DNA of 64,000 nucleotides, taken from Bacillota bacterium. Its GTDB lineage: Bacteria; Bacillota; Sulfobacillia; JAJYWN01; JAJZPE01. The notes under the pieces were generated by a model. That model ran no database searches, was not told the DNA's origin, and worked only from the letters and a program-made list of their open reading frames with translations. A program made the translations under genes and the position numbers. The stretch spans positions 14,053 to 78,052 of the forward strand of contig JAJYMC010000049.1 in the NCBI GenBank assembly GCA_021787335.1. Reading direction: 5' to 3'. This document shows, in pieces, positions 4,590 to 61,741 of this stretch. Position 1 is the first letter of the stretch, and each line of letters starts with the position of its first letter.

Positions 4590-5594
4590 GTGCCCAAGCC
4601 AACCGTCGTGCTCTTCGCCACCGGCGGGACCATCGCCATGAACACGCCCAGCGGCCCCAGCGCCGGCGGGGGTGGCGGCGGAGCCATGCCGGCCCTGACC
4701 GGGGCCGACCTCGTGAAGGCGGTCCCGGCCCTCAAGCGGGTCGCCGACGTGGAGTACGAGCAGGTCTGCAACGTGCCCGGCCCGTCAATCAGGTTCGAGA
4801 ACCTGCTGGATCTGCTCGGCCGCATCCGCGAACGCTTCGCCGACGCCAACGTCAGCGGCGGGGTGGTCACCCACGGCACCGATACCATCGAGGAGACGGC
4901 CTACTTCCTCGACCTCGTCCTCGGCCGGGGCAAGCCGGTGGTCGTCACCGGGGCCATGCGCCACGCGGGTCTGCTGAGTTCCGACGGCCCGGCCAACCTC
5001 TATCAGTCGGTGAAGGTGGCTGCCTCGCCGGAGGCCGTCGACCGCGGCGCCCTCGTCGTCCTCAACGGCACCATCCACGCGGCGGCCGAGGTCACGAAGC
5101 TGAACACCCAGAGCGTCGAGACCTTTCACTCGCCCGACTTCGGGCCTATCGGGGGCGTCTTCGAGGAGAGGGTGGTCTTCGTCCGGAGCCCGCGCCGGCG
5201 GCGGGCCCTGCCCGTGACGGCCATCACCCACAAGGTGGCCATGGTCAAGATGGCCGTCGACCCGGACCCCGAGTTCCTCGAGGCCATCATCGGCGCGCGC
5301 CCCGACGGCCTCGTCCTCGAGGCGGTCGGCGGCGGACACGTTCCGCAGACGGCCCTGCCCTTCATCGACCAGGCCATGCGGCAGGGGACGAGGGTGGTCA
5401 TGTGCACCCGCGTCCCGGTGGGGCCGCTCCTCACCGAGACCTACGGCTTCGCCGGCAGCGAGACGGACATGCGCAAGCGCGGCATCCCCTTCAGCCATCA
5501 CAACGCCCAGAAGACGCGGATCAAGCTGCTTGTGGCCCTGGAGCAAAAAGACCCGACGGCCATCGAGGAGGTCCTCGCCGACCCGGATTGGTGA
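4590..5594 (+). CDS. ansA: L-asparaginase (type I, AnsA-like)
   Basis: N-terminal VVLFATGGTIAM threonine motif and asparaginase/glutaminase fold conservation. GTG start with AGAGGGA RBS. Confidence 0.85.
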   Translation: MPKPTVVLFATGGTIAMNTPSGPSAGGGGGGAMPALTGADLVKAVPALKRVADVEYEQVCNVPGPSIRFENLLDLLGRIRERFADANVSGGVVTHGTDTIEETAYFLDLVLGRGKPVVVTGAMRHAGLLSSDGPANLYQSVKVAASPEAVDRGALVVLNGTIHAAAEVTKLNTQSVETFHSPDFGPIGGVFEERVVFVRSPRRRRALPVTAITHKVAMVKMAVDPDPEFLEAIIGARPDGLVLEAVGGGHVPQTALPFIDQAMRQGTRVVMCTRVPVGPLLTETYGFAGSETDMRKRGIPFSHHNAQKTRIKLLVALEQKDPTAIEEVLADPDW

Positions 5595-22008: not shown

Positions 22009-22046
22009 AATAATATGATTTAAGCAAGATGGGAGTTGAAGGTCCC

Positions 22047-22427
22047 ATGAAGCGTTTCGTCAAGGTCTTCAGAGCTCTGGGAGAACCCACCCGCCAACGG
22101 ATGATCAAGCTTCTGAGTTCCCGGGACCTCTACGTTTGCGAACTGGCGGAGGTCCTTGACATGAAACAATCGCGGGTGTCCCAGCACCTCAGAATCCTGA
22201 AAGAGGCTGGTGTCGTCCGGGAGGGGAGGGAAGGCACCTGGACAAGGTATTCTCTTGATCGGGCCCTCCTCAAAGAAGCCTGGGGAGACTACCTATCTTT
22301 CCTCCAAAGTCCGCTCGAGACGTTGGAGGGCTTCGGTCCCGAAGCCGCTCGCCTGAAGACGCTGCAACTCGGCCCAACCCTTGCGGTCTGCAAGGTGAAG
22401 CCAGGAGCAAAAAAGGGAAGGGGATAA
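22047..22427 (+). CDS. ArsR/SmtB-family transcriptional regulator
   Basis: HTH segment LGEPTRQRMIKLLSSRDLYVCELAEVLDMKQSRVSQHLRILKEAG. Confidence 0.75.
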   Translation: MKRFVKVFRALGEPTRQRMIKLLSSRDLYVCELAEVLDMKQSRVSQHLRILKEAGVVREGREGTWTRYSLDRALLKEAWGDYLSFLQSPLETLEGFGPEAARLKTLQLGPTLAVCKVKPGAKKGRG

Positions 22428-22431
22428 GAGA

Positions 22432-22782
22432 ATGGATCTTGAACAGCTTCTCACCAAGATGGCGGAAGAGTTGGGCGAGGAGCCCAAGCCCATGAAACTT
22501 CTCAGCCAGATCGCCCCAGACGCCGTCTTTGAGCACGCCGCCAACAAAAACTTCGTTTTCGCCAAGGACGCGATCCCCGCCAAGTACAAGCTTCTCACAA
22601 GCATCGCCATTTCGGCCGCGCTCGGGTCCGAGACCTGCACCACCACCTATGTCAAGTCGGCGCTGCGAAAGGGCATCACCCGAGCCGAGATCGCCGAGGC
22701 CATTCTCCTGGCCCGTTTTGTCAAGGCAACGACTGTCGTGGCTGCTTCCGTGCCGGCCATGGAGCTATTGACCGAGCGGTAA
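22432..22782 (+). CDS. Carboxymuconolactone decarboxylase (AhpD-like) family protein
   Basis: 116-aa all-helical protein with CMD-family core (LLTSIAISAALGSETCTTTYVKSALRKG). Confidence 0.65.
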   Translation: MDLEQLLTKMAEELGEEPKPMKLLSQIAPDAVFEHAANKNFVFAKDAIPAKYKLLTSIAISAALGSETCTTTYVKSALRKGITRAEIAEAILLARFVKATTVVAASVPAMELLTER

Positions 22783-23383
22783 GGCGGCCGGATTGCCCGC
22801 CCATGGGTGCCCCCGCGCACCGGCGGCATCGACCCATGATACCCTGCTCTGCAAGAGGAGGCCCGCCGACCGTTTCGGCGGGCCTCCTGTAGATGGCGTT
22901 CGCTAACTCGGCGGCCTGCTCTCCGCAACCCATTGGCTTGGGGAAATCCAGCGGCGAAATGGGCGGTCTTTCCACTTTCAGGACACCCTTTGGCTCGACG
23001 CCGTGAAGCAACGTGTTGGTGACGGTCCCCCACTTGACGCTGAGCTCATGCAGTTGGCGTAGCTTGTCCTCGGGTTCAGGGCTCTCCAGGGTCAAGACGT
23101 ACGAGAGTTCAACGATGCCAGGCGGGTCGTCAAAGCGCACGGCGTCAATGACGATCCGGATGTCGTCGACGTGGAGACGCATCTTCTCAGAGAGACTCGT
23201 GAGGTTGGTCATCAAACAAGCGCCGAGAGCAGCCATCAGTGTCTCGGCGGCGTTGAAGCCGAAGCGCGCCTCACCTTTCTTCGTGCTCAGGATGAGGCTG
23301 TGTTCCCTCGCTTTGGCCTCGCCTTGGAAGTCTCCGTGGCGGTTGATGGTCACCCTGTACCTTTGAACTGAGTTTTCGCTCAT
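22721..23383 (-). CDS. OsmC/Ohr-family peroxiredoxin-like protein; the ORF lacks a stop at the expected position and reads on through a hairpin
   Basis: OsmC core (AAETLMAALGACLMTNL...WGTVTNTLLHGVEPKGVLKVE). Start ATG 23383 (MSENSVQRYRV). The expected C-terminus is near 22980, but the ORF runs to 22721 across the 22855-22888 hairpin and into the convergent gene. Confidence 0.6.
   Translation of the reverse strand: MSENSVQRYRVTINRHGDFQGEAKAREHSLILSTKKGEARFGFNAAETLMAALGACLMTNLTSLSEKMRLHVDDIRIVIDAVRFDDPPGIVELSYVLTLESPEPEDKLRQLHELSVKWGTVTNTLLHGVEPKGVLKVERPPISPLDFPKPMGCGEQAAELANAIYRRPAETVGGPPLAEQGIMGRCRRCAGAPMGGQSGRLTARSIAPWPARKQPRQSLP
22855..22888. terminator. Perfect 14-bp-stem hairpin between convergent genes (aggaggcccgccga-ccgtt-tcggcgggcctcct)
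   Basis: Read directly; no U-tract. Confidence 0.4.
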
Positions 23384-23476
23384 GACCCAATCGGCCCCCT
23401 TTGAGCCGGATTTCTGGTTGTCCAGAAGACTGCCGGCCGGTGGGAGGCCTGCAGGCCCCAAACGGGTGGAAGCACC

Positions 23477-23803
23477 CTAGGCTTGCAACTGTTGCACACG
23501 GATGGTCGCGAGCTCTTGCTTCACGGTGACCAGGACCTTCTGCTTGCGCATGAATTGGCGCAGGCCTTCCACGGACGGGAAGCTTATCGCGTCGAACAGG
23601 CAGGTATTGGCACAGGTGATGCATCCGACCATGCAGGCCTGGGGTTGACTGACCACTGCCTTCTTGAGCCCGAAATCGAACCCGTAGACCTTCTTGCCGC
23701 AGCTGGTGAAGCAGACCCCGCAACCGGTGCACTTCTCGACGTCGATTACTGGATGCCATTCAATGTTTTCTCTGGGAATGCTATGCCATGCGGGGAGAGT
23801 CAT
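23477..23803 (-). CDS. 4Fe-4S dicluster ferredoxin-like protein
   Basis: Two cluster motifs: CTGCGVCFTSC and CMVGCITCANTC. Confidence 0.75.
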   Translation of the reverse strand: MTLPAWHSIPRENIEWHPVIDVEKCTGCGVCFTSCGKKVYGFDFGLKKAVVSQPQACMVGCITCANTCLFDAISFPSVEGLRQFMRKQKVLVTVKQELATIRVQQLQA

Positions 23804-23949
23804 TTTACTTTTCCTCCTGTGTTAGTTGTTGGGCGCTAAAATCAATATATAACTATATACGAATATAGTCAAGACTTAATTGCGGGCGAACCTAACTCTG
23901 GGCAACCGGGCCGGACGAGAACGATCATCAGTATTGGAGGTGAAGGGAC

Positions 23950-24666
23950 ATGAGACTCGTCGTTTTCTCTGATGTTCACGGCAACCTTCCGGCTTTGCGG
24001 GCAGTGCTGGACGACATGAGGCACGAGAGACCCGAATGGGTGGTCTGTGCGGGCGATCTGGTCGGGTACGGCCCGTTTCCGAACGAGGTCATCGAGCTGA
24101 TCCGGGAGGAACGCATCCTGACGGTGACGGGGAATTACGATGACGGCGTTGGCCACGACCGCCCTGACTGCGGGTGCGCTTATCGAACGGAGCGAGCCAG
24201 GGAGAACGGACAGAAGTCGCTCGAATGGACCAAAGCACACACGACGCCCGAGAACAAGGCCTTCCTGAAATCCTTGCCGTTGTCGACCAGCCTATCGTTT
24301 GAAGGCCGGAGGGTTCTTGTCGTCCACGGGAGCCCCCGCCGGATGAATGAGTACCTCTACGAGGACAGGCCCGAGGCGACCATCAAGAGAATCCTGGACG
24401 CCGCCGAGGCCGATGTCCTCATCGTGGGGCACACCCACATTCCGTACCATCGGGTGTTTGGCAATAAGCACCTGGTGAACGTGGGGAGCGTCGGCAAGCC
24501 AAAGCACGGGCGGCCTACAGCGGTGTACGCAGTCCTCAGCCTGGCCGACCGGGTGTCGGTGAGTTTCAATGAGGTGCCGTACGATGTCGAAGCCGCCGCC
24601 CGGGCGGTCGAGGCGGCCGGGCTCCCGGGCGATTTCGCGGACGCTCTCCGGAGCGGCCAGGATTAA
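23950..24666 (+). CDS. Calcineurin-like metallophosphoesterase (YfcE-like)
   Basis: MRLVVFSDVHGN...GDLVGYGP...GNYD...VVHGSP...GHTHIP metallophosphatase motifs. Confidence 0.8.
   Translation: MRLVVFSDVHGNLPALRAVLDDMRHERPEWVVCAGDLVGYGPFPNEVIELIREERILTVTGNYDDGVGHDRPDCGCAYRTERARENGQKSLEWTKAHTTPENKAFLKSLPLSTSLSFEGRRVLVVHGSPRRMNEYLYEDRPEATIKRILDAAEADVLIVGHTHIPYHRVFGNKHLVNVGSVGKPKHGRPTAVYAVLSLADRVSVSFNEVPYDVEAAARAVEAAGLPGDFADALRSGQD
24232..24299 (+). repeat. 68-bp segment of the phosphoesterase gene that is duplicated at 28943-29010
   Basis: aagtcgctcgaatggaccaaagcacacacgacgcc[c/t]gagaacaaggccttcctgaaatcc[t/a]tgccgtt; 2 mismatches. Confidence 0.9.
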
Positions 24667-24709
24667 GTCGCCTTCCCTCGACTCTTTGCGGCAGGGGGGT
24701 CAATTTGGC

Positions 24710-24738
24710 TTGACACAACCTAAGCCATAGGCATAATA
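24710..24738 (+). promoter_or_regulatory. Promoter (TTGACA - 16/17 - CATAAT) for the arsD-like gene cluster
   Basis: Read directly in the AT-rich intergenic region 24667-24793. Confidence 0.5.
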
Positions 24739-24793
24739 TGATGCATAGGCGTATAGCGATTGACGGATATGCTGGACGGATGGCGATGAACCC

Positions 24794-25195
24794 TTGGGGG
24801 CAGTGGGGGAGGTGGCCGAATCGAACGGCAAGGCCATTGAGATCCAGGTCTTTGATTCCGGAATGAAGGGTAATCTCTCGCCGTGTGACGCTCGGCAATC
24901 ACCTGAGGAGAGGACGCGGGCAGTCGCCCGTGCCTTGGCCCGTAAGCACGGGGACAAGGTACGGGTCGCGTTCATCGACCTGTTCTCCGAAAGGGGGCAG
25001 CGGATGGCCGGCGTATGGGAGGAGATCACCCGGCGAAATCTCAGCCTTCCCGTGGTCACGATGGACGGCCGGGTGGTGATGGCGGGCGAGCTGTCCTACG
25101 CCAAGCTCGGCCGGGAGGTGGAGCGGTGGCTGGGGGACGCCCATGGTGCCGTGCTGGGGACAGAGAGAAATCGCGGAAAGGGGGATGCGCAGTGA
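24794..25195 (+). CDS. ArsD-family thioredoxin-fold paralog 1 (single conserved Cys; start uncertain)
   Basis: Core IEIQVFDSG...SPCDARQ...AVARALARKHGD...NLSLPVVTMDGRVVMAGELSYAKL parallels ArsD. The tracked ORF begins with TTG 24794. Confidence 0.5.
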   Translation: MGAVGEVAESNGKAIEIQVFDSGMKGNLSPCDARQSPEERTRAVARALARKHGDKVRVAFIDLFSERGQRMAGVWEEITRRNLSLPVVTMDGRVVMAGELSYAKLGREVERWLGDAHGAVLGTERNRGKGDAQ

Positions 25196-25539
25196 GTCAA
25201 CAGCCCGTCGTCATTCGGGTCTTCGACGCGCCTGGCAAACCCTGCGGGTGAGGATCGAAAGGAGTGACCGCTGGATGCGGTCCAACGATTCAGGACCAGA
25301 CGTCGGCCATCGCCAGGGCGTTGGCGCAGAAGTACGGTGACAACGTGACGGTCGAATATGTCAACCTCGTGTCTCCCCGGGGGGCGAGCTTTCGCGACGC
25401 CTGGGGGGTCATCATGGCTCACAATCTCGCGCTGCCAGTGGTGACGGTCAACAATCGGGTAAGGCTATCCGGCGTCCTTTCCCTCGCCGAACTGGACCGG
25501 GAAGCCGGAAGCCTGCTGAGTCACGGAGGTGCGCAATGA
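25192..25539 (+). CDS. ArsD-family paralog 2 with in-frame TGA at 25249-25251 (candidate selenocysteine protein): VSQQPVVIRVFDAPGKPCG-U-GSKGVTAGCGPTIQDQ...
   Basis: GTG 25192 with AAAGGGGGA RBS overlaps the previous stop (GTGA). The ORF continues in the same frame across a single TGA into the tracked ORF 25264..25539. The UGA lies beside a Cys and upstream of GCGPT, aligning with ArsD's C12-C13/C18 region (MCCPGGLCGPT). Hairpin gaccgc-tggat-gcggtc begins 14 nt after the UGA. Confidence 0.45.
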
Positions 25540-25877
25540 ACGGGGATTCGGCCGCGGCGACGTCGGTGGAAGTCGACCTCTACGACCCACCAATGTGCTG
25601 CCCAGGCGGGCTGTGCGGTCCCACCGTCGACCCGGAACTGCTGAAGATCCACGAGGCTCTCCTGGCGGTCGAAAGAGAGTTCGGCGACCGGGTGGTCGTT
25701 CATCGTCACGTCCTGAGCCAGACGCCCGCCAAGTTCATGGCCAACCCGGACATAGTTGCCATCCTGACATCCGACGGTGTTGACGCCCTGCCGGTGACCG
25801 TGGTGAACGGCAGGATCATCAAGAAGGGTGTTTACCCCAGTCTTGACGAGATCCGGCAAGCGATTGTCTCAGGTTGA
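25536..25877 (+). CDS. arsD: ArsD arsenical metallochaperone/repressor
   Basis: LYDPPMCCPGGLCGPTVDPELL matches the ArsD FDPAMCCSTGVCG Cys triad and fold. Confidence 0.8.
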   Translation: MNGDSAAATSVEVDLYDPPMCCPGGLCGPTVDPELLKIHEALLAVEREFGDRVVVHRHVLSQTPAKFMANPDIVAILTSDGVDALPVTVVNGRIIKKGVYPSLDEIRQAIVSG

Positions 25878-25957
25878 CCGCGGCAAGGCCGCCGGCTAAC
25901 CATTAAGCCCGCAGTTCATTCTGATCGACGTCCGGGTCGTCTATTCGCTGGTAAACG

Positions 25958-26381
25958 GGCCGCCGGGTGGAGGGATATCCTCACCAGCGTTCCCGGGGTG
26001 GGAATGGTGACCGCGGCCGGTTTTCTTGGGGAGATCGGGGATCCCACCGCCTTCTCAGACTGGCGGCAAGTGCAGAAGCTGGCGGAGTTGAACCTGGTCG
26101 AGCAGGGTTCCGGGGAGAAACGGTGGCAGCGTACCATTTCGAAGCGTGGCCGGCCCGGCCTCAGGGCCCTGCTGTATCAGGCGGCGCTGGCCGCCGTCGC
26201 CAAGGATCCGGTGTTCGGCTCATTGTACCGCTACTTCTTAGGTCGAGCCCAGAACCCGTTGCAGAAGAAGCAAGCCCTGATAGCCGTAGCTCTGAAGCTC
26301 TTACGGGTGATGCTCCGGCTCGTCCAGAGCCGCCAGTTCTACGATCCGGTAGGCCGAGGGCGAAGGCTTGGGGACACCTAA
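25958..26381 (+). pseudogene. IS110-family transposase remnant (C-terminal transposase_20 region only)
   Basis: ILTSVPGVGMVTAAGFLGEIGDPTAFSDWRQVQKLAELNLVEQGSG...ISKRGRPGLRALLYQAALAAV matches the IS110 C-terminal domain. The N-terminal DEDD domain is absent. Confidence 0.65.
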
Positions 26382-26452
26382 GACGCAAACCTGCAAGAGA
26401 ATGAGATTCAACGTCTCTAAGCTCAAAAACATGTAGACAGGAGGAACCGCTC

Positions 26453-26638
26453 ATGGAAAAGAAGAACAGCGAAGTGAAATCAGGCAAAAAGGGACTTTGG
26501 GCCATGCTCAAGGAGTCCATGAACAAGGCTAGCAGCGGTTGCGGCCCGGGGTGCGGTTGCCATGTCGAGAATCAAGATAGCGAGAATCAACGGAAGGATG
26601 CGCCGGAGAATCCGGAAAAGGAGAAGGAAGAAGCATGA
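26453..26638 (+). CDS. Small Cys-rich protein (61 aa; SSGCGPGCGCH motif), translationally coupled to the P-type ATPase
   Basis: CAGGAGGA RBS; its stop overlaps the ATPase ATG (ATGA). Lys/Glu-rich tails flank a CxxxCxC cluster. Confidence 0.55.
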   Translation: MEKKNSEVKSGKKGLWAMLKESMNKASSGCGPGCGCHVENQDSENQRKDAPENPEKEKEEA

Positions 26639-28581
26639 TGGTTCGACCCAATGATTCTCGAAACTGGCAACAGATACTGATCTTTGCGCTTGTTCCGGTG
26701 ATAGTGGGCGCATTGACACTGGCCTCTTGGCTCCTGGGCCGCTGGCAGGTCGGGCCTTGGCTTCTCGTTGGCCCCTGGCAGGTCGGTCCGGGAATTCCGG
26801 CTGCGGGACTTGCTCTGGTCGCCACCTTATTTGGCGGATGGCAGCGGTTTTTGGCAGGCTTTCGGGATGTCGCACACCGCAGGATCACGGTCAACGTCTT
26901 TGTGACCGTGGCGATTTTTGTCACCATAGCCGTCGGCGAGTTTTTGCCTGCTGCGGTGATCATTCTGATCATGGCCGTCGTCGGGGCTTTGGAGTCTTAC
27001 ACGCTCGACAGGACGCGCCGGAGTATCCGCAACCTGCTCGATCTCACCCCTCCGATGGCAAACGTGCGACGTGGCGAAGAGGAAGTCCCCGTTTCCGTGG
27101 CCGAGCTTCAGTACGGAGATGTCGTGATCATACGGCCGGGTGAGCGAATCCCGGTGGACGGCGTGGTTATTGCGGGTGCTGCCACCGTCAATCAAGCCCC
27201 CATTACAGGTGAATCCATGCCGGTGGGAAAGCTTAAGGGCCACGAGGTGTTCGCAGGCACCCTAAATGAGGATGGCCGCCTTGAAATTCGAACAATCAAG
27301 ATCGGCGCGGATACCACTCTTGCCAGAATCGTTCACTTGGTCGAGGAAGCGCAGGAGTCCAAAGCGCCCATCCAGGGGGTCGCCGACCGCTTCACCGTGT
27401 GGTTCCTCCCTACAGTCCTCGTCCTTGCGATTGTCGGCTATCTGATTTCGGGTGATGTGAAGGTAGCTGTCGCCATCTTGCTGGTGGCATGTCCATGCGC
27501 CTTCGCCATCGCGACTCCCTCGGCTATGGCCGCCGGAATTGCGAACATGGCCCGACGAGCCGTACTCATCAAGGGTGGTATTTTCTTCGAAATCGCAGGT
27601 AGGATTGACTCCCTGGTCGTTGACAAAACCGGTACCCTCACCCTGGGCCGTCCGAAAGTCCTGGAGGTCATCAGCGGCGATGGCATGCCGAAAGACGAAG
27701 TGCTTAATCTGGCTGCCATCGCTGAAAAGTACTCAGAGCATCCTTTGGCAAAAGCGGTAATGGCTATAGCCAAAGAAAGGGCACTTGAGGTGCCGGACCC
27801 CGATGAGTTTAGAATCGAGGTTGGCAAGGGGATCGTGTCTTCCCACAATGGACAGGAGATCGTGGTTGGGAGGGATGTTTTTCTGAGGGAACAGGGGATC
27901 GTCATTCCTGCTTGGATTGAGCAGGCCGTGACGGACCAATCCGACCTCGGAAGGACGGCGATTTTGGTCGCACGAGACCGCGAAGCCATTGGACTTCTGT
28001 CCATCGCGGACGAAATTAGAGCCGAGACAGTGGGTGCAATTGAATCGTTGAAGTCGCTTGGCGTGGGCAAAACCACCATGTTGACCGGCGATAACTCCAA
28101 AATTGCGCAAGCCGTAGCATCCCAGATCGGCGTGGATGAATTCCGGGCCGAGCTCTTGCCGGAGGATAAGGAGTCTGCCATCAAAGAGATGAAAAACAAA
28201 GGGAAGATCGTCGCCATGGTCGGTGACGGGATCAACGACGCGCCTGCCCTGGCGCTGGCCGATGTCGGCATCGTGATGGGGGGGACCGGCGCAGACGTCG
28301 CCATTGAGGCGGCTGATGTAACACTCATGGACGGCAACCTCTCACGCTTGGTCGAATTCGTGCAGATGTCCCGGAAGGTGCTGCGGCGGATCAAGCTCAA
28401 TATCTTCTTCTCAATAATCTATAACGTTATCGGTCTGACCCTGGCGATGCTTGGACACCTGACGCCCGTTATGGCCGTCATTTTCCAAGAAGCCGGCTGT
28501 GTCACCGTGGTCCTCAGCTCCACGTTGCTGCTCTGGGCCAAGGTCCCGGACCTGAAAAGCTCCGGGGCCAAACTGTCGTAA
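26635..28581 (+). CDS. Heavy-metal-translocating P1B-type ATPase without an N-terminal metal-binding domain
   Basis: TGES, CPC (VACPCAFAIATP), DKTGTLT, GDGINDAP motifs. Starts directly with TM helices and a WQVGP x2 repeat. Metal specificity not assignable from sequence alone. Confidence 0.9.
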   Translation: MMVRPNDSRNWQQILIFALVPVIVGALTLASWLLGRWQVGPWLLVGPWQVGPGIPAAGLALVATLFGGWQRFLAGFRDVAHRRITVNVFVTVAIFVTIAVGEFLPAAVIILIMAVVGALESYTLDRTRRSIRNLLDLTPPMANVRRGEEEVPVSVAELQYGDVVIIRPGERIPVDGVVIAGAATVNQAPITGESMPVGKLKGHEVFAGTLNEDGRLEIRTIKIGADTTLARIVHLVEEAQESKAPIQGVADRFTVWFLPTVLVLAIVGYLISGDVKVAVAILLVACPCAFAIATPSAMAAGIANMARRAVLIKGGIFFEIAGRIDSLVVDKTGTLTLGRPKVLEVISGDGMPKDEVLNLAAIAEKYSEHPLAKAVMAIAKERALEVPDPDEFRIEVGKGIVSSHNGQEIVVGRDVFLREQGIVIPAWIEQAVTDQSDLGRTAILVARDREAIGLLSIADEIRAETVGAIESLKSLGVGKTTMLTGDNSKIAQAVASQIGVDEFRAELLPEDKESAIKEMKNKGKIVAMVGDGINDAPALALADVGIVMGGTGADVAIEAADVTLMDGNLSRLVEFVQMSRKVLRRIKLNIFFSIIYNVIGLTLAMLGHLTPVMAVIFQEAGCVTVVLSSTLLLWAKVPDLKSSGAKLS

Positions 28582-28942
28582 CATCTCCCTTCCTCATCAT
28601 TCAGGCCTCGAGGGAACATATACAAACAAAGGCAAGGTAGGGGAAATGTCCCATTCATGACCATGCCTGCCGTACCAAGACCTTCAAGAACAAGGATGGC
28701 GTCGCCCCGGAAGCCAGGTGGGCCAAGGCGTGGGGCCCGGCGCGGATTTTCCGTCGGCTCTGGAAGGCCCTCGGCCTTCAGGATGTGTTCCAGCGCCTTC
28801 TCTCGGATGCGGCCATCGTCTCGGACCTGGCCGAGGCCGCCTTCGCCATGGTTGAACCGCCTTGTGGACCCCATGTCCAAGCTCGGAGTGAGCGAGTGGA
28901 TGAAGACCGTTCACCGCCCCCGAGTGGGCGCTTGAGTTGCAC

Positions 28943-29010
28943 AAGTCGCTCGAATGGACCAAAGCACACACGACGCCTGAGAACAAGGCCTTCCTGAAAT
29001 CCATGCCGTT
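28943..29010 (+). repeat. Second copy of the 68-bp phosphoesterase-gene fragment (see 24232-24299); supplies the arsA upstream region and RBS
   Basis: Near-identical to 24232-24299; followed by AACAAGGAGGG and arsA ATG 29034. Confidence 0.9.
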
Positions 29011-29033
29011 AACAAGGAGGGAAATGGAAGATA

Positions 29034-30980
29034 ATGTCCGAACTTGACCAGGAACGCGGCGCCGAACGACGAGAGACGCAGTTCATCTTCTTTTCGGGCA
29101 AGGGCGGAGTCGGCAAGACGTCCATGGCCTGCGCGACCGCGGTTCACCTGGCCATGGAAGGCAAGGCCACGCTCATTGTGACCACCGATCCGGCTTCGAA
29201 CCTGGCCGACGTCTTCGGTCAGGAAATCGGCCACCGGGAGGCGCCGATAAGGGGGACCCCTCGACTCTGGGCGATGGAGATTGATCCGGACCGGGCCACC
29301 GAGGAGTACCGGGAACGAATCGTCGGCCCGATGCGCCTGGTGATGCCGTCGGAGATCACGCGGGTGATTGAAGAGCAGTTCCGCTCGCCGTGCACGACGG
29401 AGATCGCCGCCTTCGACCGCTTCGTTGACTTCATGGACGACTCTTCCTACGACATGGTCATCTTTGACACCGCGCCCACGGGACACACGATCAGACTGCT
29501 TGAACTGCCGGTGGACTGGAGCAAACACATTGAGGAGAGCGCTCAGCACGGTGGGCAGACCTGCATGGGGCCGGTGGAGGCGATTCAAGGCTCCAAGGCC
29601 AAGTACGACCGGGCTATTCGCTTCCTGCGGGATCCGGGCCGGACCACCTTCATCTTTGTGATTCAGGCCGAGCAGACGCCCGTTTTCGAGGCCGAAAGGG
29701 CAATGAAAGAACTGGCCACGATCGGTGTCAAGTCGACCTGGCTGATTGTCAATGGGCTCATCCCCCAAGATGCCGCTGATAACCCTCTCTTCGCCAAGCG
29801 CCTGACGATGCAGCAGAGGTACCTGAAGGATATCGCCCGGCGGTTCCCCATGACGACGACGATGATGCCCTTGCTACCCGTGGAAATACGGGGCACCGCC
29901 ATTCTGTCCAAAGTGGGCGACCTGCTGTACCGCAGTCCGGCCGAAACGCCTCCGACGCATGGGCCATGGACCGCCGCGGGGATGGACGGCCACACAGCGC
30001 CGGTCTCCGGCAAGGGAGAGTCGGACCACGCCGGCTCCAGATCTCCGACCGACTGGGCGGGCGTGCGAGCCGCCCTGACCCCCGGCCCCACTGGGCGGAG
30101 GCTGCTGTTTTTCACGGGGAAGGGAGGGGCCGGCAAGACTACCATCGCTTCCGTCACCGCCGTGCGGTTGGCTGAGCTTGGGTATCGGACCCTTCTGGTC
30201 TCGACCGACCCAGCCTCGCACCTCAGCCAGTCTTTCGCCCAGGAGATCGGGGCCGAGGTGACCCCCGTGGTCGGCCAGCCTGGCCTGTATGCCGCTCGGG
30301 TAGACCAGAAGGAAGCGGTGGAGGAATACCGAGAGCGAATTCTCTCTGAAGCCAGAGGGAAGTATTCAGCCGACATGCTCGAGGCGATGCGGGAGGAGTT
30401 GAATTCTCCGTGCACCGAGGAGATGGCCGCCTTCGAGAAGTTCGTCAGGTATACCACTCTGACGGACTACGACGTGACGGTCTTTGACACGGCCCCGACC
30501 GGTCACACCCTGCGCCTTCTCGAATTGCCGATGGAATGGGACAGGCAGGTTGAGATCATGGTCTCAACGAAGCCCGGGACGCAGGCCTTCGCGGAAACGA
30601 AGGCCCGCTTTGACGATGCCATCAAGACCCTGCGCGACCCCGCCGAGACCACCTTTGTCTTCGTGGTCTATCCGGAATACACGCCCATAATTGAAGCCTT
30701 TCGGGCGAGCCAGGATCTCTCCCAGAGCGGCATCAAGACCGGCTTGGTGGTTGCCAATCTCGTCCTTCCCCATGGGCATCGGTCGACCCCGCTGTATGAC
30801 AGCCGGTACGGGCTTCAACAGAAGTATCTGGGCGGAATCCAAGAGAAGTTCGGCGTGCCCATGTTGGTCATGCCGCTCTTGGACGAGGAGATTAACGGGC
30901 TACCTCGGCTCAAGGAGGCGGCCGCGATTCTGTATGGGGAGGAGCTGGGGGATGGCCGCAAAGCCGACGCAGGATCATGA
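29034..30980 (+). CDS. arsA: Arsenical pump-driving ATPase ArsA (two homologous halves)
   Basis: Two P-loops (GKGGVGKTS, GKGGAGKTT), two DTAPTGHT motifs, and conserved metalloid-binding Cys (SPCTTEIA, GQTCMGP, SPCTEEMA). Confidence 0.9.
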   Translation: MSELDQERGAERRETQFIFFSGKGGVGKTSMACATAVHLAMEGKATLIVTTDPASNLADVFGQEIGHREAPIRGTPRLWAMEIDPDRATEEYRERIVGPMRLVMPSEITRVIEEQFRSPCTTEIAAFDRFVDFMDDSSYDMVIFDTAPTGHTIRLLELPVDWSKHIEESAQHGGQTCMGPVEAIQGSKAKYDRAIRFLRDPGRTTFIFVIQAEQTPVFEAERAMKELATIGVKSTWLIVNGLIPQDAADNPLFAKRLTMQQRYLKDIARRFPMTTTMMPLLPVEIRGTAILSKVGDLLYRSPAETPPTHGPWTAAGMDGHTAPVSGKGESDHAGSRSPTDWAGVRAALTPGPTGRRLLFFTGKGGAGKTTIASVTAVRLAELGYRTLLVSTDPASHLSQSFAQEIGAEVTPVVGQPGLYAARVDQKEAVEEYRERILSEARGKYSADMLEAMREELNSPCTEEMAAFEKFVRYTTLTDYDVTVFDTAPTGHTLRLLELPMEWDRQVEIMVSTKPGTQAFAETKARFDDAIKTLRDPAETTFVFVVYPEYTPIIEAFRASQDLSQSGIKTGLVVANLVLPHGHRSTPLYDSRYGLQQKYLGGIQEKFGVPMLVMPLLDEEINGLPRLKEAAAILYGEELGDGRKADAGS

Positions 30981-30996
30981 TTTCAGAGGTCGGAAG

Positions 30997-31416
30997 ATGA
31001 GTGATGCGCTTGGACTTCAGGGTCGATTGTCCGTCAAACCGCGGGAGGCTGGTGACCAACGTATGGAAGCCCTTTTGGAGCAGATCAAGGCCATGTCCGA
31101 CGGGACCCGGCTCAAGATCCTCAAGCTGGTCGAGCGGCAGGAGCTCTGTGTCTGCCAGATCGTTCCCATCATGGGGCTTTCACAACCCACCATCTCCACC
31201 CATCTCGGCAAGCTGAAACGGGCTGGACTGGTCAAGGAACGACGTCGGGGTCAGTGGGCCTATTACTCGATGAACCGTGAGAGCTTGGCTCAGTTCGGCA
31301 AAGCATTGGAAGCATTCTTTTCGGCTCAGCTTGAGGAGATCCCGGAGATGCGGGCGAATGCTCTCCGGCTGGCCGAAGAGCTCGCGAAAGGGGACCCGTG
31401 CCCAAAGGACCCCTGA
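30997..31416 (+). CDS. arsR: ArsR-family arsenic-responsive repressor (CVC motif)
   Basis: [31 protein letters not shown]. Start ATG 30997 or 31063; the tracked ORF is extended upstream artificially. Confidence 0.75.
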
Positions 31417-31481
31417 ATCGGGGCCCCTTAAGGCCGTGTTTCCGGCTGCGCCAAGAACCTGACAGACCAAAGGAATGGAGG

Positions 31482-32558
31482 GCCTCGCAATTGAATAACG
31501 GGAAGACCACCGCGGCCAAGCTGTCGCTGCTTGATCAACTCCTGACCGTCTGGATTCTCCTCGCCATGGCCCTGGGGGTGGGCCTCGGCTACCTCTTTCC
31601 GGGGGTGGCGGCGCTCCTTGACCGGCTATCCGTCGGTACGACTTCCATCCCCATCGCCGTCGGCCTGATCGTCATGATGTACCCACCCCTGACCAAGGTC
31701 CGGTACCGTGAACTGGGGAAGGTCTTCAAGAACGGCAAGGTTCTCACCCTTTCGTTGGTCCAGAACTGGCTCATCGGGCCGGTGTTGATGTTCCTCCTGG
31801 CCATCATCTTCCTCCGCGGGTATCCCGAGTACATGGTCGGCCTCATCCTCATCGGGCTGGCCCGCTGCATCGCCATGGTCATCGTTTGGAACAGCCTGGC
31901 CAGGGGGGACACCGAGTACGCGGCCGCCCTGGTCGCTTTCAACTCGCTGTTCCAGGTCTTCTTCTATTCGGTCTATGCTTACGTCTTCATAGCGGTCCTC
32001 CCCGCGTGGATGGGCCTCAAGGGCGCCGTGGTCCACGTGACCATCGGACAGGTGGCCGAGAGCGTGGCGATTTATCTGGGAATCCCGTTCCTGGCCGGCT
32101 TCTTGACCCGGACCATCCTGGCTCCGCTCAAGGGCGAGGAGTGGTACGAGAAGCGCTTCGTTCCCAAGGTCAGCCCCCTGGCCCTGATCGCCCTGCTGTT
32201 CACGATCATCGTCATGTTCTCGCTGAAAGGGCGGTACATCGTCGGGCTTCCACTGGACGTGGTCCGGATCGCCGTCCCCCTCATCATCTACTTCGTGGTC
32301 ATGTTCATGGTCTCGTTCTTCCTGAGCCACCGGTTCGGGGTGGATTACCCGAAGACGGCGAGCCTGTCTTTCACGGCGGCCAGCAATAACTTCGAGCTGG
32401 CCATCGCCGTGGCCGTGGCGGTCTTCGGTCTGAACTCCGGCCAGGCCTTCGCCGCGGTCATCGGCCCGCTCATCGAGGTCCCGGTGATGCTGGCTTTGGT
32501 CAATGTATCCCTGGGCTTTTCCAGGCGATACTTCCGAACCCAGGGAGGCAACGGATGA
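31482..32558 (+). CDS. acr3: ACR3-family arsenite efflux transporter
   Basis: [33 protein letters not shown] and a 10-TM profile typical of Acr3. Likely TTG start 31482 after GGAGGG RBS. Confidence 0.85.
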
Positions 32559-32568
32559 ACCGGCCGAC

Positions 32569-32602
32569 GGCCCCCGCGCTGGACCGCGGGGGCCGTTTTC
32601 CG
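32569..32602 (+). terminator. Rho-independent terminator after acr3
   Basis: ggcccccgcg-ctggac-cgcgggggcc + gttttcc. Confidence 0.7.
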
Positions 32603-32801
32603 CTATCCCGAGACCGGGGCGGTGGTTGAGGGGGTTCGCGAAGGCTGGCTGATGGTCGTCCCGCCCTGGGCGGCGTGGTGACAAGCCTGGGGCCATACAA
32701 GCTCTTGGCCACCGCCTTTGCCGCTAGAGGCTGAACTCAATTGGGGTAAGGGTTGTTGCCCCAGACGGCCATACGCCGGTCGGTCACAGCCCAAGAGTCT
32801 A

Positions 32802-32830
32802 TTGACACCACTATATTAGGATATTAGAAT
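32802..32830 (+). promoter_or_regulatory. Promoter (TTGACA - 17 - TAGAAT) for the second ArsR-family gene; the spacer contains a TATTAG direct repeat
   Basis: Read directly. Confidence 0.55.
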
Positions 32831-32848
32831 AAAGGCGAGGCGAGGTGT

Positions 32849-33115
32849 TTGACTTTGAACGAACGTTTCTTGTCCCTGGAAGCTAGGCTGACCAAGGCGA
32901 TGGGTCACGCGACCAGGCTAAAGATTCTTCACCTCATCGCTGAAAACGGGCCGCGGTGTGTCTGCGAACTGGTTCCGGTGTTGCGCGTGGACCAATCCAA
33001 CGTGTCCCAGCACCTGTCGGTGCTGCGGCAGGCCGGGGTCGTGGTGGCGCGACGGGATGGCGCCCGGGTCGTCTATTCGCTGGCAAACCCGAGGACGTCC
33101 GCGACGAACATTTGA
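32849..33115 (+). CDS. ArsR-family regulator (CVC metal-binding motif)
   Basis: GPRCVCELVPVLRVDQSNVSQHLSVLRQAGVV. Start TTG 32849/32855 or ATG 32900. Confidence 0.7.
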   Translation: MTLNERFLSLEARLTKAMGHATRLKILHLIAENGPRCVCELVPVLRVDQSNVSQHLSVLRQAGVVVARRDGARVVYSLANPRTSATNI

Positions 33116-33312
33116 TGCGCAACCAGATCCTGAAGGTCCTGGCGGCCGGGCCGCGGACCATCCCTCAGATCGCCGCCGCCCTCGGCTACCCGGCCCATGA
33201 AGTCGTCTTCTGGGTGATGGGGATGCGCAAGTATGGCTTCGTGGCCGAGATCAAAGAGGTCACCGGTGAGGGTTACTATCAGTACCAGGCCGTGCCGAGG
33301 GAGGGAGCCTGA
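33115..33312 (+). CDS. Small winged-helix-like protein (65 aa)
   Basis: ATG overlaps the preceding stop (TGATG). MRNQILKVLAAGPRTIPQIAAALGYPAHEVVFWVMGMRKYGFVAEI... has a HTH-like profile. Confidence 0.4.
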   Translation: MRNQILKVLAAGPRTIPQIAAALGYPAHEVVFWVMGMRKYGFVAEIKEVTGEGYYQYQAVPREGA

Positions 33313-33635
33313 TGGCCCTTTTGAACCCCGACCTGGCGGACCAGGTCCGCCAGGCAACCCCGTGGAGCTCAAGCGGTCACGAGTTCAACGCCTCGGCCTG
33401 CATGAACTGCGGGGTCTGCGGCGCGGTCTGCCCGATGGGCATCGAACTCTTGCCCCGCAAGCTGTTCCGCTACGTCCTCCTGGGGATGGAGGACCAGGTC
33501 AAGGAGAACACCGAGACCATCTATTCCTGCCTCCTGTGCAAGATGTGCGAGGTGAACTGCCCGGCGGGGGTGCATATCGCGGAAAACGTGCGCTCTCTGC
33601 GGCACTTCATCAACCGCCAAGTCTTCAGGCTTTAA
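33312..33635 (+). CDS. HdrC-like 2x[4Fe-4S] ferredoxin-domain protein
   Basis: CMNCGVCGAVCP and CLLCKMCEVNCP motifs. Confidence 0.7.
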   Translation: MALLNPDLADQVRQATPWSSSGHEFNASACMNCGVCGAVCPMGIELLPRKLFRYVLLGMEDQVKENTETIYSCLLCKMCEVNCPAGVHIAENVRSLRHFINRQVFRL

Positions 33636-33647
33636 GGAGCGAAGACC

Positions 33648-34623
33648 ATGCCACTACCTATCGGCGATACCATCGGCATCCTGGCCGACAACCTCCGCCT
33701 GCGCGGGTCGGTCCTGCCCATCAGCGCCCGCAACGCCACCAGGTGGGCCAGGGGCCTCAACCTGCCCCGCGGCGGGGAGACCGTGCTCTACACCGGGCTG
33801 ATGTTCCAGCTCATCCCGTACATCGAGGAGATGAGCCAGGCCGAGGAGAAGCTCGGGGATTCCTGGCTGGCCGGCTTCGTCGGCCTCGGACGGCAAGTGA
33901 ACAAAGTGGTGAACATCTCGGCCCTCATGGCGCGGCCTTCCGCCCCAGGTGCGGGCGGCCTATGACCAGGTCCTGGTCAACGTGGCCAGTCTGCTGAAAC
34001 AGGCGGGGGTCGACTTCGGGTACCTCTATGAGGAGGAGCTCTATTCCGGGGCCCTGATCTACGACCTCGGCGTGGATGAGGCCCTCGAGCGTCACGCTCG
34101 CAAGGTCTACGGCCTTCTGAAGAAGCGCGGGGTCAAGAAGCTCATCACGGTCGACCCGCACACCACCAACATGCTGCGCTCGGTCTACCCGACCATGATC
34201 GAGGGCTATGACCTACAGGTGCAGAGCTATCTGGAGGTCCTGGCCGAGCGGGGGCTGAAACCGGCGCGGAACCTGGCCGGCGAGGTGGCCATCCACGATT
34301 CCTGCGTCTTCGCCCGGTACGAGGGCGTCGTCGACCAGCCCAGGGAACTCCTCGGCCAGGCCGGGCTGACGGTCAAGGAGCCGGAGGACGCCGGCAAGTT
34401 CACCTGGTGCTGCGGTGGGCCGGCCGAATCCCTCTACCCCAGGAAGGCCCTGGCCAACGCCCAGAGGAGGGTGGAGCAGTTGAAGTGGGCGGCTCCGGAC
34501 GGGGTGACGATGTGCCCCATCTGCTACGTTAATCTACAGAAGGCGGCCGGTGAAACCATGCGTTTCCAGGACATCTCCCATTACTTGCGGCAGGCTTACG
34601 GGCCGCATAAGGACGTGAAATAG
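33648..34623 (+). CDS. HdrB-like CCG-domain Fe-S protein, split across two frames (33648-33965 and 33949-34623). Frameshift or assembly indel.
   Basis: The C-terminal segment carries canonical CCG motifs (HDSC, FTWCCGGP, CPICYVNL). The N-terminal segment is a degenerate CCG half. The two frames overlap at 33913-33965. Confidence 0.6.
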
Positions 34624-58588: not shown

Positions 58589-58797
<209 letters not shown>

Positions 58798-58827: not shown

Positions 58828-60072
58828 GTGTCCTATGTCAGGGGGCTCCGCTGCCGGGAGTGCGGGGCGACCTACCCGGTGAGCCCGGTCAGCATCTGTC
58901 CGGAGTGCTTCGGGCCGCTCGAGGTAGACTACAACTACGACGCCATGCGCCAGGCGATCAGCCGTTTCTCCATCGAGTCGGGGCCGGCGACGATGTGGCG
59001 CTACCGGTCGTTCCTGCCCATCGACGGGGACCGGGTGATCGACCTCGGCACCGGCTTCACGCCGCTGATCAAGGCCGACCGGTTGGGCAAGGAGCTTGGC
59101 CTGAAGCGGCTTTATGTCAAGAACGACGCGGTCAACCCGACCTACTCCTTCAAGGACCGAGTCGTCAGCGTGGCCGTCTCGAAGGCCCTCGAGTTCGGCT
59201 TCGACACGGTGGCCTGCGCCTCCACGGGCAACCTGGCCAACTCGGTGGCCGCCCACGCCGCCCGGGCCGGGCTGAAGTGCTACATCTTCATCCCAAGCGA
59301 CCTGGAGCTGGGCAAGGTCCTGGGGACGATGATCTACGAGCCCAACGTCATCACCGTCCGCGGCTCGTACGATGAGGTCAACCGGTTGTCCAGCGAGGTC
59401 GCCGACCGCTACGGATGGGCCTTCGTCAACATCAACCTGAGGACGTTCTACTCCGAGGGCTCGAAGACGCTCGCCTACGAGACCGCCGAGCAGCTCGGCT
59501 GGACCCTGCCGGGCCAGTACGTCTCGCCCATCGCCGGGGGCTCGGTGCTGACCAAGATCGCCAAAGGCTTCGGCGAACTGCTCCGCCTGGGACTCGTCCA
59601 GGGACGCGAGCCGAAGGTCTTCGGGGCGCAGGCCACCGGCTGCGCGCCGGTCGCCCGGGCCTTCAAATCCGGCGCCGACGTCATCACCCCGGTCAAGCCG
59701 AACACCATCGCCAAGTCGCTGGCCATCGGCAGCCCGGCCGACGGCGAGTACGCCATCGCCACGGTCAAGCGGGCCGGCGGTTACATCGACGACGTCAGCG
59801 ATGAGGAGATCGTCCAGGGCATGCGGCTCCTGGCGCGGACCGAGGGCGTCTTCACCGAGACGGCCGGCGGCGTGACCGTGGCCACCTTGGCCAAGCTGGC
59901 CCGGGAAGGGCGGCTGGACCCGGAGGAGGTCACCGTCGTCTACATCACCGGGAACGGCCTGAAGACGATGGAGGCCGTCGAAGGTTCGCTCGGGCAGGCG
60001 CCCGGGGCCATCGCCCCGAAGTTCGAGGAGTTCGAGGGGAGAATCCGCGCCCTGGCCGTCGCGCCGGCCTGA
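58828..60072 (+). CDS. Threonine-synthase-like PLP enzyme with N-terminal Cys4 zinc ribbon (MetM-like homocysteine synthase candidate)
   Basis: CRECG...CPEC ribbon, then fold-type II PLP core (SFKDR lysine motif, TGNLANS). Sits behind a SAM riboswitch and before a ThiS-like carrier. Confidence 0.8.
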   Translation: MSYVRGLRCRECGATYPVSPVSICPECFGPLEVDYNYDAMRQAISRFSIESGPATMWRYRSFLPIDGDRVIDLGTGFTPLIKADRLGKELGLKRLYVKNDAVNPTYSFKDRVVSVAVSKALEFGFDTVACASTGNLANSVAAHAARAGLKCYIFIPSDLELGKVLGTMIYEPNVITVRGSYDEVNRLSSEVADRYGWAFVNINLRTFYSEGSKTLAYETAEQLGWTLPGQYVSPIAGGSVLTKIAKGFGELLRLGLVQGREPKVFGAQATGCAPVARAFKSGADVITPVKPNTIAKSLAIGSPADGEYAIATVKRAGGYIDDVSDEEIVQGMRLLARTEGVFTETAGGVTVATLAKLAREGRLDPEEVTVVYITGNGLKTMEAVEGSLGQAPGAIAPKFEEFEGRIRALAVAPA

Positions 60073-60115
60073 GTCCGGCGGCCAGCGGGTGCTTCAACCA
60101 TGGGAGGGTTCCACA

Positions 60116-60435
60116 TGAGCTGTAAAGTGCGCATCCCGGCGCCGCTCCGCCGGTACACCGGCGACGCCGCCGAGCTTCATCTCGACGCGGCCACCGTCGG
60201 CGACCTGGTCAAGACGATCGAGGCCGGTCACCCCGGCTTCGCGGCCAAGGTCCTCGACGACAAGGGCCAGCTACGGCGGTTCATCAACATCTACGTCAAC
60301 CAGGAGGACATCCGGTTCGCCGGGGGGCTGGGCACGCCGCTCAAGGACGGCGACGAGGTCTCCATCATCCCGGCCATCGCCGGCGGCGACACATCGCCGG
60401 CGGCGCCGGTTGACAGCCCAGCCTGGGGCCGATAG
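60116..60435 (+). CDS. ThiS/MoaD-like sulfur-carrier protein with a 15-aa extension after the Gly-Gly (MetO/CysO/HcyS-like proprotein)
   Basis: Beta-grasp length and profile, ...EVSIIPAIAGG followed by DTSPAAPVDSPAWGR. ATG 60116 after GGGAGGG. Confidence 0.7.
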
Positions 60436-60498
60436 TATCTAGGCGGATACGAAACAGGGCCCCGTCCGGCGCGGCCGGCGGGGAAGGGAGAGAGGCAG

Positions 60499-61350: not shown

Positions 61351-61741
61351 GATCATCGCCCACTGCCGGTCCGAAAGACCGAACGAGGCCTGCGGCCTCC
61401 TGGCCGGACGGGGCGGCCGGGTGCTGCGTGTCTACCCGGCGCGGAACGCCGAGCGCAGCCCGCAGAGTTTCCTCATCCACCCCGATGACCAGCTCAGGGC
61501 GATGTCCGAGATGGAGCGGGACGGCCTGGAGTTCACGGCCGTCTACCATTCCCACCCGACCAGCGACGCGGTCCCCTCGCACCGCGACATCCAACTGGCC
61601 ACCTACCCTGAGGCGCTCAACCTCATCGTCTCATTGAAACGTGAGCCCGTCGTCTGCCGCGCCTATCGGATCGTCGGCGGCCATCAGAGCGAGGTCCCGT
61701 TGGCCATCGAGAAGGAGGCCCCCGATGTCCGGTCGAAATGA
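61343..61741 (+). CDS. JAMM/MPN+ metalloprotease (Mec+/CysO-hydrolase-like)
   Basis: E...HSHP...S..D JAMM motif (EACGLL ... VYHSHPTSDAVPSHRD). ATG overlaps the E1 stop (ATGCGTGA). Confidence 0.8.
   Translation: MREIIAHCRSERPNEACGLLAGRGGRVLRVYPARNAERSPQSFLIHPDDQLRAMSEMERDGLEFTAVYHSHPTSDAVPSHRDIQLATYPEALNLIVSLKREPVVCRAYRIVGGHQSEVPLAIEKEAPDVRSK

Follow-up and report, generated by a model that had tools for sequence, protein, structure and literature searches.

A candidate selenoprotein gene with a YuzD/ArsD-like thioredoxin fold in an arsenic gene island of an uncultured Bacillota bacterium

The gene 2 locus and its close orthologs

The window analysed here is a stretch of 64 kb (positions 14,053 to 78,052 of contig JAJYMC010000049.1, assembly GCA_021787335.1) from the metagenome-assembled genome of an uncultured member of the Bacillota with spore genes and a GC content of 65%. 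It contains an arsenic island in which a small open reading frame (ORF), denoted gene 2, is interrupted by an in-frame TGA codon and is a candidate for a selenoprotein gene. Gene 2 is preceded by its paralog, gene 1, and followed by a bona fide arsD (Table 1). The GTG start of gene 2 (25192–25194) overlaps the TGA stop of gene 1 (25193–25195) as GTGA; the frame reads VSQQPVVIRVFDAPGKPCG up to the TGA, continues with GSKGVTAGCGPT and ends with a stop codon (25537–25539) that overlaps the arsD ATG at 25536. The reading of the frame and the ribosome-binding site (RBS) AAAGGGGG bear out a preliminary description of this DNA, made from the sequence alone, which had placed the start at this GTG, behind an RBS and with the GTGA overlap, and had noted that the frame stays open past the TGA to 25539.

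Cys18, Gly and the proposed selenocysteine (Sec) at position 20, together with Cys29, form part of the loop behind strand beta1. In thioredoxins, the CxxC motif lies in this loop, as do the As(III)-binding cysteines of ArsD. Comparison of the two paralogs shows that exactly the 7-residue module PGKPCGU is missing from gene 1. The order gene 1–gene 2–arsD is common to all three available loci (the window, L001 and L004), and in L004 it continues with arsA directly after arsD and then with metallophosphoesterase, arsR and acr3 genes. No promoter or terminator was found between gene 1, gene 2 and arsD. In L001 and L004, gene 1 and gene 2 are separated by a spacer (about 180 nt, 2290–2472, and 4731–4835, respectively), where the window has the GTGA overlap instead.

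Table 1. Positions of the principal features in the window (SECIS, selenocysteine insertion sequence; bSECIS, bacterial SECIS)
Feature	Position	Strand	Remarks
ArsR-family regulator	22029–22427	+	left edge of the arsenic island
Sigma-70-like promoter TTGACA-16-CATAAT	24710–24737	+	11 of 12 matches; upstream of gene 1
Gene 1, tandem paralog of gene 2	24794–25195	+	about 40% identity to gene 2; single Cys
RBS AAAGGGGG	25177–25184	+	spaced 7 nt from the GTG start; present in all three orthologs
Gene 2, selenoprotein candidate	25192–25539	+	115 codons; YuzD/ArsD-like thioredoxin fold
In-frame UGA, proposed Sec codon (residue 20)	25249–25251	+	kept in L001 (2530–2532) and L004 (4893–4895)
Possible extended SECIS lower stem	25252–25291	+	GGAUCG 25252–25257 / CGAUUC 25286–25291; predicted minimum-energy fold
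Proposed bSECIS upper stem-loop	25266–25282	+	GACCGC 25266–25271, loop UGGAU 25272–25276, GCGGUC 25277–25282; A-U to U-A compensatory change in L004
arsD, bona fide	25536–25877	+	PF06953 95.1 bits; NF033727 95.8 bits
arsA	29034–30980	+	directly behind arsD in L004
acr3-type arsenite carrier (SBF family)	31398–32558	+	
Second ArsR-family regulator	32849–33115		

Gene 2 is very rare: among 5.8 billion clusters, a word-indexed search yields two truncated calls of 72 amino acids (aa), and an exhaustive HMMER search of 1.8 billion representatives, started with a profile built from pieces of the window, adds one further call of 90 aa; a scan of metagenome contigs returns only L001 again. The sole genome contig that matches the ortholog alignment (L010 from Nitrospirales) is a false positive, a chance match to AIARALAQKY within a 337-aa ORF, so that the representative genomes of GTDB either lack gene 2 or have it masked.

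Three distinct versions of gene 2 are available for comparison, namely those of the window (identical in L002), of L001 (about 83% DNA identity) and of L004–L009 (about 70%). L002 comes from an independent run and is 100% identical to the window over 2174 nt, TGA included; the identical assembly of gene 2 in this run indicates that the TGA is not a base-call error, which the preliminary description had named as a possible objection. Likewise, six contigs, of which one belongs to an ENA assembly and each of the other five to a separate sequencing run, carry the L004 version in identical form. All three versions keep the TGA, the RBS AAAGGGGG, an upstream start (GTG, GTG and TTG, respectively) and the motif VFD-x-P-x-KPCG-U-G-[SA]-KG...AGCGP. 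Between the window and L001, codons 2–19, which precede the TGA, differ by 4 synonymous and 1 non-synonymous changes, and the four codons from the TGA to a possible restart by 3 synonymous and 0 non-synonymous changes; between the window and L004, the differences per codon position are 6/3/11 before the TGA and, similarly, 27/17/45 in the rest of the gene. In these orthologs, substitutions before as well as after the TGA fall preferentially on third codon positions and are mostly synonymous. The only possible restart codon, GTG 25264, is GGG in L001, which speaks against another objection considered in the preliminary description, a gene that ends at the TGA with a separate start downstream. 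The retention of the TGA, RBS, start and motif, the third-position bias and the identical independent copies together rule out an error of sequencing, a pseudogene and a start downstream that is conserved.

Family placement and the Cys and proposed Sec forms

The similarity of gene 2 to characterized families is remote. Scored with C in place of the in-frame stop, gene 2 reaches 16.2 bits with the Pfam profile of ArsD (PF06953, cut-off 27 bits), 15.0 bits with the NCBIfam profile (NF033727, cut-off 90 bits) and 17.2 bits with DUF1462 (PF07315, cut-off 25 bits), and gene 1 reaches 21.6 bits with DUF1462, all below the respective cut-offs; no NCBIfam model matched either gene. Two relatives, P0007 and P0018, lie just above the PF07315 cut-off (25.5 and 25.8 bits). 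An hhalign comparison of the gene 1/gene 2 clade with the PF07315-positive “YuzD” relatives gives a probability of 98.4% (E 5e-15) and with ArsD a probability of 90.8% (E 1e-6), and the profile of the family, built from 66 sequences, aligns with ArsD with the probability of 97.2% (E 4e-11). A profile search of the PDB started with the family profile identifies S. aureus SA0798 (1XG8, DUF1462) as the best structure (E 2e-9). An AlphaFold model made for gene 1 has a pLDDT (predicted local distance difference test score) of 72 and the strand and helix order of the thioredoxin fold; the top Foldseek matches of this model are ArsD chains, thioredoxins and 1XG8. As judged from these profile comparisons, gene 2 is nearer to YuzD/DUF1462 than to ArsD, of which it is a remote homolog. 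The preliminary description spoke of three tandem ArsD-like genes; the third is indeed a true ArsD (95 bits), whereas the other two stay short of both the ArsD and the DUF1462 cut-off and are ArsD-like at the superfamily level only.

The hhalign alignment to ArsD matches U20 with the second member of the Cys-Cys pair and C29 with the conserved Cys that follows, the third metalloid-binding one, in agreement with the initial assignment of the UGA to a position at or next to Cys12/Cys13 of ArsD with Cys18 kept. Compared with the Cys12-Cys13-Cys18 triad of ArsD, gene 2 has C18, U20 and C29, so that its CxU pair is not vicinal and the spacing is different.

The HMMER profile search identifies 105 representatives, which are small proteins with a Gly/Cys-rich loop behind beta1, about twenty of them truncated at the N-terminus. 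Seven representatives, N-truncated or “W”-containing, were inspected at the DNA level, and in six of them that loop contains an in-frame TGA. The Sec forms, written with U at the TGA, are FGGG-U-GSSCGPSC (L012–14), GGCG-U-GSKRDSSC (L015), TGGG-U-GPSC (L016), CFSGG-U-GPSWS (L017/18), CCSGG-U-GPHWS (L019) and CLTGG-U-GPRWS (L023, for which the source prints W); the seventh, the truncated family hit P0047/L020, proved to be a Cys-form fragment (GCG-C-GSK) rather than a Sec gene. The position aligned with the UGA is occupied by Cys in P0012 (GGCG-C-GSG) and in L020, and the U of L017, L019 and L023 falls in a near-invariant Cys column of the YuzD-like group with the pattern C-x3-C-G-x-D-W-S. The check proposed in the preliminary description, whether relatives have Cys at the TGA position, thus has an answer at two levels: the close orthologs all keep the TGA, and the Cys is found in relatives from the wider family (P0012, L020). 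The loop is of low complexity, and the exact Cys/Sec register is less certain for the window gene than for L017.

The names given to the relatives in the source databases are “disulfide oxidoreductase YuzD”, “glutaredoxin” and “hypothetical”; none of them refers to a selenoprotein, and all database entries examined for the Sec forms show W for the UGA or are truncated at it. In L023 (284–655, P0064), the source renders the TGA of the DNA as Trp, and the table-11 translation differs from the protein as stored. P0064 is a table-4 gene call that hides the Sec codon and also reads past the real stop region; P0013 probably presents the same situation.

On two unrelated contigs (L017 3001–4220 and L019 1374–2633), the Sec-containing YuzD-like gene is located directly upstream of a gene for a 323-aa thioredoxin-reductase-like (Pyr_redox_2) protein. 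Further upstream, L017 encodes a DUF302 protein and one with a thioredoxin domain; in L019 the neighbors are OsmC upstream and a CsoR-type repressor downstream. These neighboring genes hint at a redox role for the L017/L019 subclade.

Probable selenocysteine insertion and its alternatives

The hairpin downstream of the UGA begins 14 nt past this codon and has its loop 20 nt past it, with a free energy of −10.1 kcal/mol when folded alone; a 6-bp hairpin at this distance had been pointed out at the outset and is confirmed at 25266–25282. The published bSECIS consensus (PMC13188914) consists of a loop of 3–9 nt that has a G among its first two nucleotides, a stem of 4–16 bp, a distance of 16–37 nt from the UGA to the loop and a minimum free energy of −7.5 kcal/mol or lower, and the window hairpin agrees with it on every count. 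The extended lower stem is weakly supported: it shows an A-U to G-C change in L001 but is lost in L004. Among the eight Sec genes tabulated, seven have a stem of 6–7 bp and a 5-nt loop (UGGAU, AGUUG, AGGCA/AGGAA), and the remaining one, L016, has a 5-bp stem and a 7-nt loop; all eight carry G at loop position 2 and have the loop 16–20 nt past the UGA, within the bSECIS geometry, although four hairpins from distant relatives are, when folded alone, weaker than the −7.5 limit (−7.4, −7.2, −7.2 and −4.2 kcal/mol). The ninth Sec gene, L023, has a stem-loop like that of L019, as judged by eye. In the stem alignment, 92.9% of the cells are paired, vs about 40% with the partner slid; double changes affect six of the seven stem pairs, and none of 500 shuffles reaches the observed score.

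The conserved UGA, the coding constraint across it, the Cys and Sec forms among the homologs, the SECIS-like hairpin with its bSECIS fit and covariation, the profile alignment with ArsD and the conserved ars-operon context all support the core claim of the preliminary description, namely a Sec-encoding UGA beside ArsD-like cysteines followed by a SECIS-like hairpin. On this comparative evidence, gene 2 is probably a genuine selenoprotein gene, its UGA being read as Sec (a probability of roughly 0.8). Several observations weigh against this conclusion. No selA, selB, selD or tRNA-Sec is detected across the 64 kb of the window and some 6 kb past its right end, in a search that comprised Pfam comparisons of the larger window ORFs (not all), precomputed Pfam annotations of the right extension, and ARAGORN. 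Neither does the window contain a second selenoprotein candidate among TGA-interrupted ORFs with high GC content at third codon positions on both sides; the pair at 35814/36972, considered as such an ORF, represents pheS with pheT behind it in one frame. Set against shuffles, the window hairpin together with its flanks shows no unusual stability (z = −0.83), and Rfam shows neither SECIS nor another RNA family at the site (gathering thresholds for the whole window, E up to 10 for 25150–25400), a null result that is uninformative given that bacterial SECIS elements are poorly modelled there. Protein coding accounts for part of the conservation of the hairpin, since among the closest orthologs conserved residues (AGCGP) are specified by its loop and by most of its stem. 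Finally, the proportion of paired cells in the stem alignment is inflated because the alignment is anchored on hand-picked hairpins. Hairpins of at least 6 bp, with a 5-nt loop that has a G in its first two positions and is located 16–20 nt downstream, occur at about 0.5% of the window positions, that is, they are uncommon and could arise by chance at a single site. The independent evidence from the hairpin is its recurrence at the same distance from the UGA in three subclades with unrelated stems.

One alternative is UGA readthrough, near-cognate or programmed, that would not involve the Sec machinery; Trp, Cys or Gly would then be inserted, and the hairpin would do no more than slow termination. 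In its favor is that no Sec machinery was detected in the window and the adjoining 6 kb. One source also prints W at a homologous TGA (P0064, L023), but this W results from a table-4 gene call and carries no evidential weight. Homologs contain Cys, not Trp or Gly, at the aligned position, and the SelB-type bSECIS geometry (loop G, 16–20 nt) recurs in the three subclades, which makes such readthrough improbable. Moreover, TGA ends 20 of the 35 Pfam-supported ORFs of the window (gene 2 counted among them) and is thus an ordinary and, indeed, the commonest true stop of this genome; hence the genetic code is not reassigned, and a reading of UGA under code 4 or 25 is rejected.

Public annotation in effect treats the UGA as a true stop, given that every database call starts downstream of it (P0001 and P0002, 72 aa; P0006, 90 aa). 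Accordingly, a 19-residue peptide, if any, would be made, and the real gene would begin at GTG 25264 or later, or would be translated by reinitiation; L004 has an ATG at the codon of GTG 25264. However, GTG 25264 lacks an RBS, and where L001 has GGG instead, the caller starts 43 codons later and loses the conserved CGPT. Purifying selection in this one frame has conserved the RBS, the start and the 19 codons ahead of the UGA, and neither beta1 nor the Cys-x-Sec module would be present in a truncated product; termination at the TGA would split beta1 off the remaining fold, which supports the Sec reading. The same-loop “truncation” recurs in six distant relatives. A true stop is, on this evidence, quite improbable. 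The idea of a pseudogene, or of an error in sequencing or assembly, whereby the TGA would stem from a nonsense mutation of recent date or from the miscalling of TGC or TGG, is still less credible and effectively refuted already. A single TGA in an otherwise intact ORF of a very rare gene family might invite this explanation, but, in addition to the identical copies of both the window and the L004 versions, the TGA is kept at 70–84% DNA identity with intact flanks.

If, as we consider probable, the UGA encodes Sec, gene 2 would be translated from GTG 25192 within a gene 1–gene 2–arsD(–arsA) operon. The hairpin at 25266–25282 would act as the bacterial SECIS for the UGA at 25249, and SelB with Sec-tRNA(Sec) would bind it, so that Sec would be inserted in place of termination. 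The predicted product is a 115-residue protein of the thioredoxin fold that would belong to a YuzD/DUF1462-like clade remotely homologous to ArsD.

The arsenic island, related proteins and possible function

The arsenic island extends from about 22.0 to 34.6 kb (22029–34623) and is flanked by housekeeping genes. Its left part contains arsR, a CMD-family gene, OsmC and ferredoxin genes on the minus strand, and a metallophosphoesterase gene; the middle part consists of gene 1, gene 2, arsD, an IS110-type transposase fragment and a P-type ATPase gene; the right part includes arsA (its product is the ATPase partner of ArsD), acr3, the second arsR, an unannotated 254-aa ORF (33233–33997) and a gene for a CCG-domain protein. 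No arsC is recognisable in the island. A 71-nt direct repeat (24211–24281 and 28940–29010, 96% identical) represents a part of the metallophosphoesterase gene copied just upstream of arsA, and between arsD and arsA lie the transposase fragment (IS110 family, 25998–26381) and the P-type ATPase gene (26635–28581). Given this repeat and the intervening genes, and that arsA adjoins arsD in L004, the ars operon of the window has been split by an insertion or rearrangement.

Several other features of the window were observed. A strong promoter-like site upstream of gene 1 (within 24710–24770) overlaps repeated ATAGGC/ATAGC motifs, and L001 has a similar arrangement, TTGACA...TATGATAAC; this could be an ArsR operator. 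A 61-aa ORF (26453–26638) abuts the start of the P-type ATPase gene and carries the string SSGCGPGCGCH, of which GCGPGCGCH is found also in the loop of the family member P0007; the ORF has no Pfam match and may encode a small metal-binding peptide. Outside the island, a riboswitch for S-adenosylmethionine (58591–58729, 88.9 bits) precedes a gene cluster (58828–63020) that encodes a PALP enzyme (its NCBI relatives bear the name threonine synthase), ThiS, ThiF, a JAB protease and a fusion of a sulfite-reductase-like protein with TusA. From its gene content, this cluster looks like a sulfur-carrier-based pathway of cysteine/methionine or homocysteine.

Of the known systems, ArsD (PF06953/NF033727; PDB 3KGK, 3MWH) resembles gene 2 in the thioredoxin-like fold, in the cysteines located behind beta1 and in the position within an ars operon beside arsA. 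Gene 2 differs from it in having C-G-U for the vicinal CC, in a spacer to the third Cys of 9 rather than 4 residues and in being followed immediately by a true arsD. We know of no ArsD that contains Sec. The closest family by profile is YuzD/DUF1462 (PF07315; SA0798, 1XG8; “disulfide oxidoreductase YuzD”), with the Cys motif in the same loop; to our knowledge, YuzD proteins have no association with ars operons. The UGSC-containing family (NF041046) also consists of small, probably thioredoxin-like proteins, in which U is followed by G-S, in contrast to the motifs CGUGSK... and GGUGP of the gene 2 family; NF041046 is matched neither by gene 2 nor by any of six other members, of which three are Sec forms and three Cys forms. 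Likewise, gene 2 matches none of the other NCBIfam selenoprotein families at E up to 1, and for the six other members (searched at E up to 0.1; L017, L019 and L023 are not among them) there is one match, far below threshold, that of the Sec form L015 to NF047660 with 14.5 bits vs a cut-off of 105.

The thioredoxin-like selenoproteins of Brachyspira (2017, PMC5330540) are small, with CxU or UxC near the N-terminus and a SECIS just past the UGA; they include a set of three tandem paralogs that mixes Cys and Sec forms and are missed or truncated in annotation. Their Sec lies in an N-terminal extension, whereas that of gene 2 lies in the beta1-alpha1 loop, and the genomic context differs as well; gene 2 has no match to the Brachyspira family (PF13192/TIGR00412) at E up to 1. 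The tandem Sec.1/Sec.2 genes of Brachyspira, a different family, are nonetheless the nearest precedent. The catalogued arsenic-related selenoproteins (PMC13188914), namely an ArsC-type arsenate reductase with UxxS, an arsenate-reductase-like protein with UxxC and an arsenite methyltransferase with UxxG, are precedents for the replacement of Cys by Sec, but their folds and families are unrelated, and no ArsD/YuzD-like protein or proposed chaperone is among them. The 2026 prokaryotic selenoprotein catalogue has no ArsD, YuzD or DUF1462 entry, in accord with the remark in the preliminary description that ArsD is not known as an established selenoprotein family, and none of the papers available for searching draws a relevant link between ArsD and selenoproteins. 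Gene 2 thus appears to be part of an uncatalogued selenoprotein family, one routinely truncated by gene callers.

With respect to function, the reading that we favor, albeit tentatively and at somewhat less than even odds, is that the S-Se-S triad binds As(III) or Sb(III) as a high-affinity selenolate site that feeds ArsD/ArsA. With less confidence, we consider it possible that the triad instead cycles via a selenylsulfide, as an oxidoreductase that serves the ars system; such a redox role is suggested by the kinship with YuzD, the thioredoxin-reductase-like gene beside the L017 and L019 relatives, and an island that lacks arsC. The full proposal, that gene 2 and its relatives represent a new selenoprotein family of the YuzD/ArsD-like clade, in whose ars-operon members the selenolate of Sec20, together with Cys18 and Cys29, directly ligates As(III) or Sb(III) for transfer to ArsD/ArsA, and hence the first selenium-based metalloid chaperone, is less likely than not to be correct.

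If confirmed, the gene 2 family would be an addition to the known selenoprotein families, and one that gene callers systematically truncate or mistranslate. It would also bring selenium chemistry into ArsD-ArsA, the best-studied arsenic-efflux pathway. As-Se bonds are stronger than As-S bonds, and the antagonism of arsenic and selenium is well known, so that a Sec-containing As(III) site would bear on the capture of metalloids at low concentrations and on this antagonism. The natural Cys/Sec pairs at two positions of the loop would make the contribution of Sec testable in a minimal thioredoxin fold.

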